Shown in pieces: positions 37,462-45,770 of a stretch of 64,000 nucleotides of DNA. Made by a program: the position numbers and the translations under genes. The stretch lies in the NCBI RefSeq assembly GCF_003334765.1, contig NZ_QOWT01000011.1. One strand, 5' to 3'. The notes under the pieces were generated by a model. That model made no database searches, was not told the origin of the DNA, and worked only from the letters and a program-made list of their open reading frames with translations. This stretch comes from Escherichia coli. GTDB taxonomy: Bacteria > Pseudomonadota > Gammaproteobacteria > Enterobacterales > Enterobacteriaceae. Position 1 is the first letter of the stretch. Each line of letters begins with the position of its first letter.

Positions 37462-39798
37462 ATGAAGCAAATTCGTCTGCTGGCGCAGTATTATGTTGAC
37501 CTGATGATGAAGTTAGGTCTGGTGCGCTTCTCAATGTTGCTGGCGCTGGCCCTCGTCGTTCTTGCCATTGTGGTACAAATGGCGGTAACCATGGTGCTGC
37601 ATGGTCAGGTCGAAAGCATTGATGTTATTCGTTCTATCTTCTTTGGTTTGCTGATTACGCCGTGGGCGGTCTACTTTCTATCGGTGGTCGTCGAGCAACT
37701 GGAGGAGTCACGACAACGTCTGTCACGGCTGGTGCAAAAACTGGAGGAGATGCGCGAGCGCGATTTGAGCCTCAACGTTCAGTTAAAAGATAATATTGCC
37801 CAGCTAAATCAGGAAATTGCCGTTCGTGAAAAAGCGGAAGCAGAACTGCAGGAAACCTTCGGCCAACTGAAAATTGAAATCAAAGAGCGCGAAGAGACAC
37901 AAATTCAGCTCGAGCAGCAATCCTCATTCTTACGTTCCTTCCTTGATGCTTCACCCGACCTGGTTTTTTATCGTAACGAAGATAAAGAGTTTTCCGGCTG
38001 TAACCGCGCGATGGAGCTGCTGACCGGAAAAAGCGAAAAACAACTGGTTCACCTGAAACCTGCTGATGTTTACTCACCGGAAGCCGCCGCAAAAGTCATT
38101 GAAACCGATGAAAAAGTGTTCCGTCATAATGTGTCACTGACCTATGAACAGTGGCTGGATTACCCGGATGGGCGCAAAGCCTGCTTTGAAATCCGTAAAG
38201 TGCCGTACTACGACCGCGTGGGTAAACGTCACGGTTTGATGGGCTTTGGTCGCGACATTACCGAGCGTAAGCGGTATCAGGATGCGCTTGAACGGGCCAG
38301 CCGCGACAAAACGACGTTTATCTCCACCATCAGTCACGAATTGCGTACACCGCTGAACGGTATCGTCGGTCTGAGCCGCATTCTGCTGGATACCGAACTC
38401 ACCGCCGAGCAGGAAAAATATCTCAAGACCATCCATGTTTCGGCCGTCACGCTGGGGAATATCTTTAACGATATTATCGACATGGATAAGATGGAACGGC
38501 GCAAGGTCCAGCTTGATAATCAACCGGTTGATTTCACCAGCTTCCTTGCCGATCTGGAAAATCTCTCCGCATTGCAGGCGCAACAAAAAGGATTGCGCTT
38601 TAACCTGGAGCCGACGCTGCCATTACCGCATCAGGTCATTACCGACGGGACGCGTTTACGGCAGATCCTGTGGAACCTCATCAGTAACGCCGTCAAATTC
38701 ACCCAGCAAGGCCAGGTTACCGTGCGCGTGCGCTACGATGAAGGCGATATGCTGCATTTTGAAGTGGAAGACTCTGGTATCGGCATTCCGCAGGATGAGC
38801 TGGATAAAATTTTCGCCATGTATTACCAGGTGAAAGACAGTCATGGCGGTAAACCTGCCACCGGCACCGGTATTGGTCTGGCCGTTTCTCGTCGTCTGGC
38901 GAAAAATATGGGCGGCGATATTACGGTTACCAGCGAACAGGGCAAAGGTTCAACCTTTACGTTGACGATCCACGCACCGTCGGTAGCAGAAGAGGTCGAT
39001 GATGCGTTTGATGAAGACGATATGCCTTTACCGGCGCTGAATGTGCTGCTGGTGGAAGACATTGAACTGAACGTGATTGTTGCGCGTTCTGTGCTGGAAA
39101 AATTAGGTAACAGCGTTGATGTCGCCATGACCGGCAAGGCGGCGCTGGAGATGTTTAAACCGGGCGAATACGACCTGGTGTTGCTGGATATTCAGTTGCC
39201 AGATATGACCGGGCTGGATATCTCTCGTGAACTGACGAAACGTTATCCGCGCGAGGATTTACCGCCGCTGGTGGCCTTAACCGCTAACGTGCTGAAAGAC
39301 AAACAAGAGTACCTCAATGCTGGAATGGATGATGTGCTGAGTAAGCCGCTTTCTGTTCCGGCGCTAACCGCGATGATCAAGAAATTCTGGGATACCCAGG
39401 ATGATGAGGAGAGTACGATGACGACAGAAGAGAACAGTAAATCAGAAGCATTGCTCGATATTCCCATGCTGGAACAGTATCTCGAACTTGTAGGACCGAA
39501 GCTGATCACCGACGGGTTAGCGGTGTTTGAGAAGATGATGCCGGGCTATGTCAGCGTGCTGGAGTCGAATCTGACGGCGCAGGATAAAAAAGGCATTGTT
39601 GAGGAAGGACATAAAATTAAAGGTGCGGCGGGGTCAGTGGGGTTACGCCATCTGCAACAGCTGGGTCAGCAAATTCAGTCTCCTGACCTTCCGGCCTGGG
39701 AAGATAACGTCGGTGAATGGATTGAAGAGATGAAAGAAGAGTGGCGTCACGACGTAGAAGTGCTGAAAGCGTGGGTGGCAAAAGCCACTAAAAAATGA
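37462..39798 (+). CDS. arcB: Aerobic respiration control sensor histidine kinase ArcB
   Basis: 778 aa ORF with transmembrane, PAS, HisKA (ISHELRTPLN), receiver and HPt regions. Confidence 0.95.
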   Translation: MKQIRLLAQYYVDLMMKLGLVRFSMLLALALVVLAIVVQMAVTMVLHGQVESIDVIRSIFFGLLITPWAVYFLSVVVEQLEESRQRLSRLVQKLEEMRERDLSLNVQLKDNIAQLNQEIAVREKAEAELQETFGQLKIEIKEREETQIQLEQQSSFLRSFLDASPDLVFYRNEDKEFSGCNRAMELLTGKSEKQLVHLKPADVYSPEAAAKVIETDEKVFRHNVSLTYEQWLDYPDGRKACFEIRKVPYYDRVGKRHGLMGFGRDITERKRYQDALERASRDKTTFISTISHELRTPLNGIVGLSRILLDTELTAEQEKYLKTIHVSAVTLGNIFNDIIDMDKMERRKVQLDNQPVDFTSFLADLENLSALQAQQKGLRFNLEPTLPLPHQVITDGTRLRQILWNLISNAVKFTQQGQVTVRVRYDEGDMLHFEVEDSGIGIPQDELDKIFAMYYQVKDSHGGKPATGTGIGLAVSRRLAKNMGGDITVTSEQGKGSTFTLTIHAPSVAEEVDDAFDEDDMPLPALNVLLVEDIELNVIVARSVLEKLGNSVDVAMTGKAALEMFKPGEYDLVLLDIQLPDMTGLDISRELTKRYPREDLPPLVALTANVLKDKQEYLNAGMDDVLSKPLSVPALTAMIKKFWDTQDDEESTMTTEENSKSEALLDIPMLEQYLELVGPKLITDGLAVFEKMMPGYVSVLESNLTAQDKKGIVEEGHKIKGAAGSVGLRHLQQLGQQIQSPDLPAWEDNVGEWIEEMKEEWRHDVEVLKAWVAKATKK

Positions 39799-40027: not shown

Positions 40028-40681
40028 ATGAAGAAAATTGGCGTAATTCTGAGCGGATGCGGCGTCTATGACGGTTCTGAAATTCATGAAGCGGTGTTGA
40101 CGTTGTTAGCTATTTCACGCAGCGGTGCGCAGGCGGTCTGCTTTGCACCGGATAAGCAGCAGGTTGATGTTATCAACCATTTAACTGGCGAAGCGATGAC
40201 GGAAACGCGCAATGTGCTGATTGAAGCGGCACGAATAACGCGCGGTGAAATCCGTCCTCTGGCCCAGGCCGATGCCGCTGAACTGGATGCGTTGATTGTG
40301 CCGGGGGGGTTTGGCGCGGCGAAGAATTTAAGCAATTTTGCCAGTCTTGGTAGCGAATGCACCGTTGACCGTGAATTAAAGGCGCTGGCACAAGCGATGC
40401 ATCAGGCCGGAAAACCGCTTGGTTTTATGTGTATTGCCCCGGCGATGCTGCCGAAAATTTTCGATTTCCCGCTGCGTTTGACCATCGGTACTGATATCGA
40501 TACCGCAGAAGTGCTGGAAGAGATGGGCGCGGAGCATGTGCCGTGTCCTGTCGATGATATCGTGGTTGATGAAGACAATAAGATTGTCACCACCCCAGCA
40601 TATATGCTGGCGCAGAACATTGCAGAAGCGGCGAGCGGCATTGATAAGCTGGTTTCCCGCGTGCTGGTTCTGGCTGAATGA
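40028..40681 (+). CDS. elbB: DJ-1/PfpI-family protein ElbB (YhbL)
   Basis: 217 aa from [21 protein letters not shown]. Confidence 0.85.
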
Positions 40682-41406
40682 GTAAAAGCCGCTTAACGGT
40701 GTTTAGTTTCGTTCGCCGTTTTCTTTTGCGGTTAATGGTTGTCCTCGCCGTTTTCTGGGGCGGGGGCATCGCGTTGTTTAGCGTTGCGCCTGTTCCCTTC
40801 TCAGCGGTAATGGTCGAGCGACAGGTCAGCGCCTGGCTGCATGGCAATTTTCGTTACGTGGCACATTCTGACTGGGTCAGTATGGATCAAATCTCGCCGT
40901 GGATGGGACTGGCGGTGATTGCCGCAGAAGATCAGAAATTTCCTGAGCACTGGGGCTTTGATGTCGCTTCCATTGAGAAAGCCCTGGCGCACAACGAGCG
41001 CAATGAAAACCGTATTCGCGGTGCTTCAACGATTTCTCAACAGACAGCCAAAAATCTCTTTTTATGGGATGGGCGTAGCTGGGTTCGAAAAGGGCTGGAA
41101 GCCGGATTAACGCTGGGGATAGAAACGGTCTGGAGCAAAAAGCGTATCCTGACGGTTTACCTGAATATCGCCGAATTTGGCGACGGTGTGTTTGGCGTCG
41201 AAGCTGCGGCACAACGTTATTTCCACAAACCCGCGAGCAAACTTACCCGGTCGGAAGCTGCATTACTGGCAGCTGTATTACCTAATCCACTTCGTTTCAA
41301 AGTCTCCTCGCCATCGGGCTACGTGCGTAGCCGTCAGGCGTGGATTTTACGGCAGATGTATCAGTTAGGCGGTGAGCCGTTTATGCAACAACACCAGCTG
41401 GATTAA
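40678..41406 (+). CDS. mtgA: Monofunctional biosynthetic peptidoglycan transglycosylase
   Basis: 242 aa ORF with the GT51 motif (EDQKF...[11 protein letters not shown]); 4 bp overlap with elbB. Confidence 0.9.
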
Positions 41407-42035
41407 GCTTCGCGCGAAGTGAGGGCCAGCGTTTTGCTCTCACGAGGTTGCAGATCTTTCTGCAGGGCAATAGCCAGCGCCGGTTGGGCGATAAATCGTT
41501 TCCATAACCGCTCTTGCTTACGCAGACAACACCACTTCGACCAGGTCGCCAGTGGAATCAATGTGCTTTCACCAATGTTGTCGCAGACGACCGGGATAAC
41601 CTCTGACTCACTGATGCGGTGACAGAGGATATTCTGCGGCTTCAGCGACATCGTCACGATACGGTTATCCTGCAAATAACGCTTCAGCTGTTTCAGTAGC
41701 TGGCGCAGTTGTGCAATGTCTTCTTCGTAACGGCATTGTTCAGCAAATTCGGTCAGCGTAATGGAAGGCTTGCCGTCAAAATCTGCAATCACATCGTAGA
41801 CATAACCGGTTCCGCAATCCGTCTCAACGGTACCGTGATAGCGCGGTATTCCACTCCAGTCTTTTAACCGGCGACCAAGATGCGCGTAGTACTTTAACTC
41901 ACGGCGGATCTCTTTATCGCCACCATCGCCACGATGGTAGACAATCTTGATACAGCGTTGGGCATCTTCCGGATGCGCATAACATTTCCGATGTCTTCCG
42001 GTGCCCAGGGGACTTTGTTCAGATAAGCGAATCAT
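41403..42035 (-). CDS. yrbL: Uncharacterised protein YrbL
   Basis: 210 aa from [24 protein letters not shown]; convergent with mtgA with a 4 bp overlap. Confidence 0.8.
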
Positions 42036-42248
42036 GCCATCTCCTGGAAATATTTTCTGACGATCTCCAGTATGGTCGATTAACTTAAACAAAACCTAAA
42101 CAATGCCTCTTAAGGTTTTCTTAAGGTTCTTCTGAAAGTGAAAAGCGCACAAAATGTACAAATGACGTTGATTGAGAACGATTTCAGTACGTGATTTTCT
42201 TATTGTCGGGGGGAGTTTGAAGGGAGTTGTATGTCAAAGTGATGAAGA

Positions 42249-42521
42249 TTAATCTTCATCAAAACCAGAATTAAAGAGGGCGATAACGGCGGCCAGTGCT
42301 TCCTCTTCCTGTGGACCGGTCGCTTCAACTTCAATCTGCCGTCCTTTGGCAGAATCCAACATCAGCAGCGCAATAACGCTGTTGGCTTCAGCCTCGGTGC
42401 CTTCGTCATTACGTAAGAGCACTTCAGCGTCAAAACCCTGCATTAATTCAAACAGCTTCATTGCAGGCCGGGCATGCATGCCCAGCTTGTTTGTGATTTC
42501 AACAGTTTGCTTGACGGTCAT
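42249..42521 (-). CDS. ptsO: Nitrogen-PTS phosphocarrier protein NPr
   Basis: 90 aa HPr-like ORF ([20 protein letters not shown]...). Confidence 0.9.
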
Positions 42522-43372
42522 GGTTTACGTTTTTCCAGCGTACGATGGCGTGACTGGACGTTTTTACCGCGCGAGCGGAAGTAGTCTGCCAGTTGCTCTG
42601 CAATATACACCGAACGGTGCTTCCCGCCGGTACAACCAATGGCGACCGTCAAGTAGCTACGGTTGTTGGTTTCCAGCATAGGTAACCATAGCTCAAGATA
42701 GCTTCGCGTCTGGTAGATAAAATTGTGTACTTCTGTGTGGCGGTCGAGGAACGCGGCGACAGGTTTATCAAGACCTGTCATTGGACGCAGTTTCGGATCC
42801 CAGTGCGGGTTCGGCAAGAAGCGCACGTCAAAGACGTAATCTGCATCGATAGGGATACCGTGTTTGAAGCCGAAAGACTCAAAGACCATGGTCAGTTCGC
42901 GTTCACGTTTACCCAGCAGACGGGTACGCAGCATTTCAGCCAGCTCGTGAACGGACATTTCTGAGGTATCGACAATCAGATCCGCTCGCGAACGCAGAGG
43001 CTCCAGCAAATCGCTTTCTTTGTCGATAGCACTTTCCAGCGACAGGTTTTTGCTGGAAAGCGGATGCAGTCGGCGCGTGTCACTGTAACGACGAATTAAG
43101 GTATTACGGTCGGCATCCAGGAACAGGAGTTGCGGTGAGAAAGCGTCAGGCAGGTTACTCATCGCCTGTTCGAATATTTCTGGTGACTCCGGCATATTAC
43201 GAACATCAATGCTGACGGCGGCAGAAATCTCGCGATCGGCCAGGGTTCGAGCCAGATCGGGTAACAACACTACGGGAAGGTTATCCACGCAGTAAAAACC
43301 CATATCTTCCAGCGCACGCAGGGCGACAGATTTACCTGAACCTGAACGTCCGCTGACGATCATCAGTACCAT
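42518..43372 (-). CDS. rapZ: RNase adaptor protein RapZ (YhbJ)
   Basis: 284 aa ORF with a Walker A motif (GRSGSGKS); 4 bp overlap with npr. Confidence 0.9.
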
Positions 43373-43417
43373 GTACTGTTTCTCCTCACAACGTCTAAAA
43401 GAGACATTACCGAATAA

Positions 43418-44336: not shown

Positions 44337-45770
44337 TCAAACGAGTTGTTTACGCTGGTTTGACGGCGGAATGGATAAAGACTCTCGGTACTTCGCAACA
44401 GTGCGGCGTGCCACCATGATACCTTGTTCCGACAGCAAAGAGGTTAACTTGCTGTCGCTCAACGGTTTCGCTGGGTTTTCCGCCGCGATTAATTTCTTCA
44501 CCAGCGCACGAATCGCCGTGGAGGAAGCTTCGCCGCCGCCCTCGGTATTGACGTGACTGGAAAAGAAATACTTCAGTTCAAAAATGCCTCGTGGACTATG
44601 CAGGTATTTTTGCGTGGTCACGCGAGATATCGTCGATTCATGCATTTCGACAGCCTGGGCGATATCGGCCAGTACCATCGGTTTCATATATTCTTCACCT
44701 TGCTCAAAGAAGGCTTGCTGCTGTTCAACGATACAGCGACTCACGCGCAGTAGCGTATCGTTACGGCTTTCCAGACTCTTGATCAACCATTTGGCATCCT
44801 GCAGATTGCTGCGGATAAACTGGCTGTCACCATCGTTGCGCGCGTTATTGCACATCGAGGCGTAGTGCTGGTTGATTTGCAGACGCGGAATGCTGTCACT
44901 GTTGAGTTCTACCGTCCAGTGACCGTTATGCTTACGCACCAGCACATCTGGAATGACATACTCAGGTTCGCCAGTCTGGATCGACTGCCCGGGGCGCGGA
45001 TCGAGCGACTGGATCAGATTGACGGCTTCTTTCAGCACATCTTCTTTCAGACGCGTGACGCGCATTAAAGTGCGGAAGTCGTGATTGGCTAACAGATCGA
45101 GATGATCGCTAATGATCAGTCTGGCCTCTTCCAGCCACGGCGTGGTCTTATCGAATTGGGAGAGTTGGATCAGCAGACAGTCACGCAGATCTTTTGCCGC
45201 CACACCGACCGGATCAAACCGTTGGATCCGCTTAAGGACGGCTTCAACTTCGTCGATGTCGATCTCTTCATCGCCTATACTTTCGAGAATATCTTCCAGC
45301 GGGACAGTCAGATAACCGGTTTCATCAACGGCATCGACGATAGAGGTAGCAATAGCGCGGTCAGTGTCGGAAAACGGTGTCAGCTCAACCTGCCACATCA
45401 GGTAATCCTGCAAGGTCTGCGTCGTTTCGCCCTGGTAGACCGGCAGCTCGTCGTCAATGTAGTCACCGCTGGTGCCGGATGGTGTACCAGCGGTGTAAAT
45501 GGTGTCCCAACTGGCATCGAGCGGCAGCTCTTCCGGCATCTCTTTTTGTTCGAGCGCGTCGGCGGTGTCCAGCGTTTCACTGTCTTGCGTTTCGCGGGTG
45601 TCGATTTCTTCATGAGTGTCGATTTGCTCAAGCAGCGGATTACTCTCCAGCGCCTGCTGTAGCTCCTGCTGAAGTTCCAGCGTCGACAACTGCAACAGAC
45701 GAATTGCCTGTTGGAGCTGTGGCGTCATCGCCAGTTGTTGGCTAAGCCTGAGTTGCAAACCTTGCTTCAT
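44337..45770 (-). CDS. rpoN: RNA polymerase sigma-54 factor
   Basis: 477 aa ORF with a Gln-rich N-terminus and the RpoN box ([10 protein letters not shown]) near the C-terminus. Confidence 0.95.

Follow-up and report, generated by a model that had tools for sequence, protein, structure and literature searches.

A perfect palindrome across the npr stop codon as a putative 3′-end hairpin of the Escherichia coli rpoN operon

The rpoN-hpf-ptsN-rapZ-npr operon of Escherichia coli ends in a perfect palindrome that lies across the stop codon of npr, its last gene. In the reading that we favour, with a probability of roughly 0.55, this palindrome acts as an RNA hairpin that defines the 3′ end of the operon mRNA; Rho would stop transcription further downstream, exonucleases would trim the transcript back to the hairpin, and the non-coding arm would have arisen by template switching. 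Both the hairpin and a 3′ terminus just beyond it are already present in a supplementary table of a genome-wide study, where they were never singled out.

The palindrome and its genomic setting

The window, by which we mean the whole 64-kb stretch of DNA that was analysed, contains the exact 20-mer palindrome of the original prediction, GATGAAGATTAATCTTCATC at 42241-42260. It extends by one base on each side to a perfect palindrome of 22 bp, TGATGAAGATTAATCTTCATCA (42240-42261), with two arms of 11 nt each (42240-42250 and 42251-42261) that are 100% complementary. The coordinates confirm that it is centred on the npr stop, as had been claimed: the centre of symmetry falls between 42250 and 42251, within the stop codon (TAA, minus strand, 42251-42249). 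Read on the npr strand, the sequence is T GAT GAA GAT TAA TCTTCATCA; its last nine bases (42248-42240), which follow the stop, are indeed a reverse complement of the codons for the final Asp-Glu-Asp (D-E-D), U+GAUGAAGA. A 221-nt query around the palindrome matches BL21(DE3) and other strains at 100% identity. Table 1 lists the features of the locus. On the minus strand the genes follow in the order rpoN, hpf, ptsN, rapZ, npr, yrbL, and mtgA, elbB and arcB lie on the plus strand, to the left of the region.

Table 1. Positions in the window of the hairpin, its flanking elements and the neighbouring genes
Feature	Position	Strand	Description
RNA hairpin, npr mRNA strand	42240-42261	minus	9-bp stem and UUAA loop, predicted fold; MG1655 3348226-3348247
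Hairpin 5′ arm UGAUGAAGA	42261-42253	minus	last base of Phe87, Asp-Glu, and first two bases of the final Asp codon
Hairpin loop UUAA	42252-42249	minus	last base of Asp90 and stop UAA
Hairpin 3′ arm UCUUCAUCA	42248-42240	minus	non-coding
C-rich, G-poor tract, candidate Rho-utilisation region	42162-42239	minus	25 C and 7 G in 78 nt directly after the hairpin
Published steady-state npr 3′ terminus	42233-42235	minus	MG1655 peaks 3348252 and 3348254, coordinates converted
npr (ptsO), PTS phosphocarrier protein NPr	42249-42521	minus	ORF and annotation; MG1655 3347966-3348238
rapZ	42518-43372	minus	
rpoN	44337-45770	minus	
yrbL	41403-42035	minus	downstream of npr; MG1655 start 3348452
Direct repeat CCTTAAG-N4-CCTTAAG	42109-42126		yrbL control region
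Perfect repeat TGTTTA-N5-TGTTTA	42086-42102		yrbL control region

Length alone does not set this palindrome apart. Across 5000 shuffled copies of the window, perfect palindromes of 20 bp or more occurred 0.059 times on average and those of 22 bp or more 0.013 times, and the analytic expectations are 0.061 and 0.015 per 64 kb, so that the chance estimate of about 0.06 originally given for 20 bp is right; the next-longest perfect palindromes in the window are of 16 bp. By the same formula, approximately 1.1 palindromes of at least 22 bp are expected per 4.64-Mb E. coli genome, and the length is therefore not significant in a whole-genome scan. What is unusual is the placement on the stop codon. 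We estimate that exact complementarity between the nine bases past the stop and the last nine of the coding sequence should be found in about 4300 x 4^-9, or approximately 0.016, genes genome-wide. A pure coincidence of sequence could appeal to the roughly one palindrome of this size per genome, but this stop-codon placement speaks against it. It is already disfavoured by the comparative data given below, in which the palindrome appears to persist across Escherichia clades with a compensated change and the Lelliottia group has a second, probably independent case at this gene end; we give it the least credence of all the explanations weighed here. A search for further copies found a single-copy element, with none elsewhere in the window at up to three mismatches and matches at a median of one place per genome among 5426 complete E. 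coli genomes.

The palindrome stands 213 bp upstream of the yrbL start codon, and the yrbL control sequences are found approximately 115-155 nt further downstream of it. They include the two repeats of Table 1, CCTTAAG-N4-CCTTAAG and TGTTTA-N5-TGTTTA, which we take to resemble a BasR/PmrA box and a PhoP box, respectively. In a serum study of ExPEC, yrbL is listed as BasR/PhoP-regulated; a link to Fur through that study was considered and dropped, since the gene is given there solely under BasR and PhoP.

Predicted fold, flanking sequence and mapped 3′ terminus

In the rpoN-operon mRNA the palindrome is predicted to fold into a 9-bp stem closed by a UUAA tetraloop that includes the npr stop codon, with the final codons GAT GAA GAT providing the 5′ arm. 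The predicted minimum free energy (MFE) is -10.2 kcal/mol (z = -4.0 against shuffles, 30 nt), the fold is retained in contexts of 71 and 121 nt, and it appears in both the MFE and the centroid structure of the whole 238-nt npr-yrbL region. Apart from the hairpin this interval is no more structured than its shuffles, which leaves it as the only robust local structure predicted between npr and yrbL. The stem is AU-rich, with G-C pairs at 3 of its 9 positions. Stop-spanning hairpins of similar energy are found at approximately 9% of long ORFs in the window, and uniqueness on the basis of energy was rejected, as several other long ORFs there have stop-spanning hairpins of -9 to -10 kcal/mol.

The sequence immediately after the stem, CUUUGACAUACAAC (CUUUGACA), has no U-tract, and a consensus promoter and terminator scan found no minus-strand terminator in 41300-43000 and no signal of either kind on the npr strand close to the palindrome. 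An Rfam scan of the same interval at E<=10 returned chance-level matches only (SNORD37, 20.3 bits against a gathering score of 45, E = 0.7); with no match above the gathering score, membership of an Rfam structured RNA family was rejected. The 78 nt that follow the hairpin are instead marked by their base composition. The C/G ratio of this tract is 3.57, at the 99.9th percentile among all 78-nt segments of the 64 kb, both strands counted; the segments of highest C/G within 41400-43400 start at the hairpin.

Published mapping places an RNA end at this position. The TRS map (PMC10687069) assigns npr a ‘Primary’ 3′ terminus that spans + strand 3348246-3348259 and peaks at 3348252 (Supplementary Data 3; LB RNAtag-seq), and prints the upstream sequence ...UUUUGAUGAAGAUUAAUCUUCAUCACUUUGA with the identical stem-loop and the same energy, -10.2. 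Supplementary Data 2 of the same work gives a terminus at 3348245-3348261, peaking at 3348254, in a dataset published earlier, and Supplementary Data 4 (LB RNAtag-seq termini, according to the legend of Fig. 7) gives an npr 3′ UTR of 15 nt. As the stem ends at MG1655 3348247, the mapped 3′ end lies 5-7 nt downstream of the last paired base. In the Term-seq lists of Adams et al. 2021 (PMC7815308), neither growth phase has a 3′ end at 33482xx, and no Rho-dependent 3′ end is given at npr; the nearest + strand entries are 3342985/3342992 (lptC) and 3348581 (inside yrbL). The npr 3′ end is thus real in some datasets, and not prominent. The TERMITe supplements do not mention the locus, and a literature search on termination at npr, the rpoN operon or yrbL found no paper.

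These properties recall a described class of transcript ends. Dar & Sorek 2018 (PMC6061677) found protective stem-loops at the ends of Rho-dependent transcripts, with no U-rich tail and an excess of C over G downstream, and such ends arise there by PNPase/RNase II trimming after diffuse downstream termination. Judged by its sequence, the npr hairpin fits this class. A stem-loop stands just upstream of a precise steady-state 3′ end (3348252/3348254), albeit with a stem of only -10.2 kcal/mol and an end that Adams et al. 2021 did not call; there is no U-rich tail, C exceeds G downstream, and the operon ends without an intrinsic terminator. Dependence on Rho and on exonucleases would follow by analogy. 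The npr element differs from the class in that its stem is weaker and more AU-rich than is typical, and in that one arm is wholly coding and the stop codon sits in the loop, hence the 3′ UTR of approximately 15 nt.

On this analogy, the favoured reading of the hairpin as the 3′ end of the operon would proceed as follows. Transcription would pass the hairpin into the C-rich, G-poor spacer, where Rho most likely stops it, and 3′->5′ exonucleases would then trim the tail back to the hairpin. Trimming would leave the steady-state end 5-7 nt past the stem and the short 3′ UTR seen in the published mapping. The hairpin probably protects the mRNA modestly and helps to keep the operon apart from yrbL, which is under PhoP/BasR control.

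The distance of the terminus from the stem would also suit a weak intrinsic (Rho-independent) terminator, in which polymerase stops at the CUUU after the hairpin and the mapped end is the primary site of termination. The end falls within or just after CUUUGA, at the distance usual for intrinsic termination, and ends of this kind may be inefficient intrinsic terminators with Rho as a backup (Dar & Sorek 2018, PMC6061677). A true terminator also has the same general layout, with the 3′ end a few nucleotides past a hairpin, and several Citrobacter/Pseudocitrobacter and Franconibacter have such terminators at the equivalent place. We nevertheless consider this explanation improbable. Only three U follow the stem, G-C pairs are few, the consensus scan is without a terminator, and the bases after the stem are not kept as U across Escherichia (CAUUCUGA, AACCCUGA, CACUCUGC). 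A canonical intrinsic terminator, with a G+C-rich stem and a U-tract of 7-8 nt, was rejected on the 3 of 9 G-C pairs and the three U.

Conservation in Escherichia and in other genera

Within E. coli the element is nearly fixed. A 36-mer core centred on the palindrome is intact in 5400 of the 5426 complete genomes, and the identity of the surrounding 221 nt falls to 90-95% in 1200 genomes. Among five phylogroup representatives the 3′ arm is identical at 9 of 9 positions, and the following 60 nt at 53-60 of 60. A rare E. coli variant, TTTTCATCA, occurs in strain 2020CK-00188, the weakest 60-mer match; here a G-C pair becomes G.U. The cryptic Escherichia clades and E. whittamii (L013, L017, L018) have TGACGAAGATTAATCTTCGTCA, a perfect palindrome of 20-22 bp in which the coding arm carries a synonymous GAT->GAC change and the non-coding arm the compensating A->G (U-A to C-G). 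Compared with these clades, the E. coli 3′ arm is identical at 8 of 9 positions and the next 60 nt are approximately 40% identical; the clade-type 36-mer is absent from the complete ‘E. coli’ genomes. Elsewhere in the genus the symmetry is reduced, to 18 bp in Escherichia L016 and to 14 bp plus a U.G pair in Escherichia sp. MOD1-EC7003, and in E. albertii it has decayed through two mismatches, including an uncompensated GAC.

Across six distinct Escherichia sequences, 88.9% of cells are paired and one pair has changed on both sides (UA/CG/UG), a count that 242 of 500 shuffles reach; the covariation is suggestive and statistically insignificant. Conservation of the 3′ arm has p ~0.04 when npr synonymous sites serve as the neutral baseline, which we regard as marginal, and ~0.005 when the hypervariable spacer does. 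The original prediction held that synonymous breakage of the palindrome in close relatives would point to coincidence, and on this the outcome is mixed, with GAT->GAC compensated in the cryptic clades and uncompensated in E. albertii. As for the proposed check of conservation across the Enterobacteriaceae, the core is nearly fixed in E. coli and the palindrome is absent from most of the other genera sampled.

For the wider comparison, 80 species-level npr loci were assembled, and at each a constrained fold was computed for the last 12 nt, the stop codon and the 15 nt after it, with other 15-mers of that locus as the reference. The actual downstream sequence ranked in the best 1% at only 8 of the 80 loci, four from Escherichia and four from the Lelliottia group (L043, L056, L058, L068). 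The palindrome is absent from Salmonella, where the npr-yrbL layout is the same, and from Klebsiella, Enterobacter, most Citrobacter and Kluyvera. The NPr C-terminus GFDED is invariant across Enterobacterales; despite it, no stop-spanning hairpin is seen in Serratia, Yersinia, Erwinia, Buttiauxella, Cedecea or Franconibacter, and for this reason the hairpin was rejected as a general feature of npr.

The Lelliottia-group counterpart differs in sequence and in setting. Two Lelliottia loci (L056, L058) and the unclassified RIT714 (L068) have GATGAGGAC-TAA-GTCCTCATC, a perfect odd palindrome of 21 nt whose arms differ from those of E. coli at two paired positions and whose register is shifted by 1 nt, with a UAA loop instead of UUAA; given this shift, the two hairpins were handled separately and not placed in a joint structure alignment. 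A bulged version is found in L043 and L032 (Huaxiibacter), with a compensated difference between the two (AGGAC/GUCCU versus AAGA/UCUU). The Lelliottia-group hairpin is probably of independent origin from that of Escherichia. In these genera yrbL is absent and npr and mtgA are convergent, their stop codons 3-9 nt apart. The 3′ arm overlaps the mtgA stop codon or the last mtgA codons, so that one hairpin would end both the npr and the mtgA mRNAs. Kosakonia has TAA-TT-TAGTACAAC, in which ‘TT’ stands between the stop and the end of mtgA; in the Lelliottia group GTCCTCATC takes its place, and compared with Kosakonia the Lelliottia 3′ arm resembles an insertion of 7-9 nt, an exact complement of the last codons. 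The spacer that follows TCTTCATCA in E. coli is weakly similar to the corresponding region.

Other structures occupy the same place in other genera. Several yrbL-containing Citrobacter/Pseudocitrobacter have a canonical terminator, AAAACGCC..GGCGTTTTTTT, right after npr, which has been lost in Escherichia; Franconibacter has a bidirectional intrinsic terminator after npr, and REP-like elements directly follow npr in Enterobacter, Citrobacter and Kluyvera. That a hairpin or terminator recurs here suggests that a 3′ structure at this position is useful.

The comparative data also bear on a DNA operator for a dimeric transcription factor that would control yrbL, or act as a roadblock at the end of the operon. 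A perfect dyad symmetry of 22 bp with an AT-rich centre, upstream of a regulated gene at the distance given above, is what this explanation would have in its favour, and we hold it to be very improbable. The one symmetric position that varies does so on both arms at once, and a variant of G.U type is found; the counterpart in Lelliottia departs from the E. coli site in register and at several positions, and the coding requirement fixes half of the site in any case. There is no second copy in the window and none at high identity elsewhere in E. coli genomes, and between the palindrome and the conserved PhoP and BasR-like boxes lies a hypervariable spacer, approximately 40% identical from clade to clade. 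With co-varying half-sites, a single copy and such a spacer before the promoter boxes, palindromic operators were also rejected as a known system to which the element might belong. We know of no regulator consensus that the palindrome matches; the Fur box is alike in base content only, with the wrong spacing. The original prediction had offered a protein-binding site and a 3′-end hairpin of the rpoN operon side by side. The symmetric change, the G.U variant, the single copy and the spacer leave the first unsupported, and the mapped terminus 5-7 nt past the stem, the missing U-tract and the C-over-G tract support the second.

Origin and significance of the hairpin

There is a possible explanation for the perfection of the arms. 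The conserved D-E-D codons fix one arm, and the non-coding arm is its exact inverted copy. This copy was most plausibly born, and kept in step afterwards, by template-switch (quasipalindrome) mutation seeded by the ATTAAT of GAT-TAA-T, since a snap-back copy of the last codons would yield perfect arms in one step. The GAT-TAA-T context forms a palindromic core of 6-8 bp in many genera (ATTAAT, and GATTAATC in some). Template-switch hairpins have been described in rRNA and RNA genes (Monttinen & Loytynoja 2022, PMC8794818), and the npr element appears to resemble them in its perfect reverse-complement copy beside the template, its apparent one-step compensatory change and an arm that looks like a short insertion relative to outgroups. 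The npr case is unlike them in that one arm codes for protein and what results is an mRNA 3′ end, and the mutational mechanism is our inference.

The same mechanism underlies the most serious alternative to a functional 3′-end hairpin. On this account, a template-switch error placed an inverted copy of the last three codons after the stop, the same process now and then re-homogenises the arms, and the 3′ terminus is an incidental exonuclease pause under no selection. A single template-switch event can yield a perfect stem or compensatory change at several bases at once, and later events can produce ‘compensatory’ change with no need for selection (PMC8794818); GAT-TAA-T would supply the palindromic core for free in many genera. 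A functionless by-product would further agree with an element that occurs in only two lineages of the genera sampled and in different registers, with its decay in E. albertii and MOD1-EC7003, with the insignificant covariation and with the insertion-like Lelliottia arm. It sits less well with a core nearly fixed in E. coli and a 3′ arm conserved beside a spacer that has diverged by approximately 60%, with a measurable molecular effect in the form of the mapped terminus, and with the hairpins and terminators found at the same place in other genera. We judge a by-product unlikely on balance, while granting it an appreciable chance. A selected role, if there is one, would be small, weak or lineage-specific, to judge from the hairpin's patchy distribution and its decay in E. 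albertii, from its weak AU-rich stem and from how common stop-spanning hairpins of comparable energy are in the window.

REP elements provide another point of comparison. They are said, in work of Liang, Rudd and Deutscher from 2015, to stabilise mRNA 3′ ends and, when less than about 15 nt from the stop codon, to stall ribosomes or lower translation. Like them, the npr element is a palindromic hairpin abutting a stop codon at an operon end, and REP-like repeats occupy this very position in the three genera named above. Membership of the REP/BIME class (multi-copy, G+C-rich imperfect palindromes of approximately 35 nt) was rejected, the npr element being single-copy, AT-rich and 22 nt long. 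REP-type stalling of ribosomes is not expected at npr, since, with the stop codon in the loop, the stem is already open by the time a ribosome terminates.

A broader proposal is that the npr end is a natural example of recurrent de novo birth of mRNA 3′-end hairpins, in which the GAY-TAA-T mini-palindrome repeatedly seeds an inverted copy of the codons, independently in Escherichia and in the Lelliottia group. The second palindrome in the Lelliottia group, of different sequence and register, suggests a template-switch origin; the proposal as a whole remains doubtful. If it were true, npr would have a ‘zero-UTR’ design in which the coding sequence makes up half of a 3′ stabiliser and the stop codon lies in its loop, and the Lelliottia-group hairpin would be common to two convergent genes, npr and mtgA. 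Every terminating ribosome would then have to melt the protective hairpin of an mRNA that ends approximately 15 nt past the stop, which could couple Npr translation to the decay or rescue of the rpoN-operon mRNA. For the present, the recurrent templated birth of stop-codon hairpins is an unproven and modestly interesting evolutionary side-story.

The understanding of any pathway is left unchanged by these observations. Under the favoured reading, the element would explain how the E. coli rpoN-hpf-ptsN-rapZ-npr operon ends without a canonical terminator, through a small hairpin and a rut-like tract upstream of yrbL. It would also offer a clean, experimentally tractable 3′-end structure half built from coding sequence, in which the part played by template switching in the birth of such hairpins could be studied, and since one arm is constrained by codons, the pairing constraint is directly testable.

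RNA 3′ ends and palindromes within coding sequence

The window holds 5 perfect palindromes of 16 bp or longer, more than the 0.96 expected from shuffled sequence. Apart from the one over the npr stop codon, all lie within long ORFs, such as arcB and elbB. A further, shorter perfect palindrome inside npr, GGGCATGCATGCCC, is coded by the active-site motif G-M-H-A-R (GGC ATG CAT GCC CGG). The tables of the published 3′-end map TRS list a terminus at MG1655 3348026-3348029, labelled ‘Alternative primary in TU’ and assigned to rapZ (PMC10687069), which falls directly downstream of the GGGCATGCATGCCC hairpin (window about 42458-42461, minus strand). The same tables include a terminus antisense to npr and inside the gene (PMC10687069). 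Its position is 3348153-3348154 on the MG1655 minus strand, corresponding to the plus strand of the window at about 42333.

A strong 3′ end at MG1655 3348577-3348581, called by both the Term-seq study of Adams 2021 (PMC7815308) and TRS (PMC10687069), was scored as not Rho-dependent. It maps to about 41906-41910 on the minus strand of the window, 125-130 nt into the yrbL ORF, and is preceded by the hairpin CCAUCGUGGCGAUGG. This end may represent premature termination or a processing site.

Positions of palindromes, repeats and terminators
Feature	Position	Strand	Context
Palindrome GGGCATGCATGCCC	42470-42483	minus	inside npr
TGTTTA-N5-TGTTTA, perfect direct repeat	42086-42102	minus	yrbL promoter region, PhoP-box-like
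CCTTAAG-N4-CCTTAAG repeat	42109-42126	minus	yrbL promoter region, BasR/PmrA-box-like
Other four perfect palindromes, 16 bp or longer	17633-17648, 23556-23571, 38518-38533, 40595-40610		
Terminator AAAACGCCnnCCGGCGTTTTTTT	about 35-70 nt past npr stop		L021, L039, L041, L049, L059, L065

Divergence of yrbL and its upstream interval

The divergence of YrbL within Escherichia is unusually high, as seen when L001, L012, L013 and L016-L018 are compared with the window gene (41403-42035). Amino acid identity to the E. coli protein is 64-75% for the cryptic clades and E. albertii, in contrast to 98-100% for Npr and 92-97% for MtgA; in other genera YrbL identity is 42-52%. At the nucleotide level, divergence within Escherichia rises sharply directly after the stop-codon palindrome. 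The spacer from there to the yrbL promoter repeats is hypervariable, and both repeats, TGTTTA and CCTTAAG, are conserved across the genus. We take these to resemble a PhoP box and a BasR/PmrA box, respectively.

In several yrbL-bearing Citrobacter and Pseudocitrobacter, the interval from npr to yrbL contains AAAACGCCnnCCGGCGTTTTTTT, a canonical intrinsic terminator that is missing from Escherichia. The cryptic clades have a 10-13-nt insertion forming CGCCC..GGGCG, followed by an A-run (columns 135-147 of alignment A1); the E. coli interval contains neither element. In E. coli S931B (L086), an IS1-like element lies between npr and yrbL, ~18 nt downstream of the hairpin (about window 42221), and the stop-codon palindrome is intact despite the insertion.

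Convergence of npr and mtgA

Most genera are without yrbL, and npr and mtgA then converge directly. In Leclercia and Silvania (L014, L010; also L023, L011) the convergent ORFs overlap, with -4 nt between stops, and the two stop codons have bases in common, so that neither gene has a 3′ UTR of its own.
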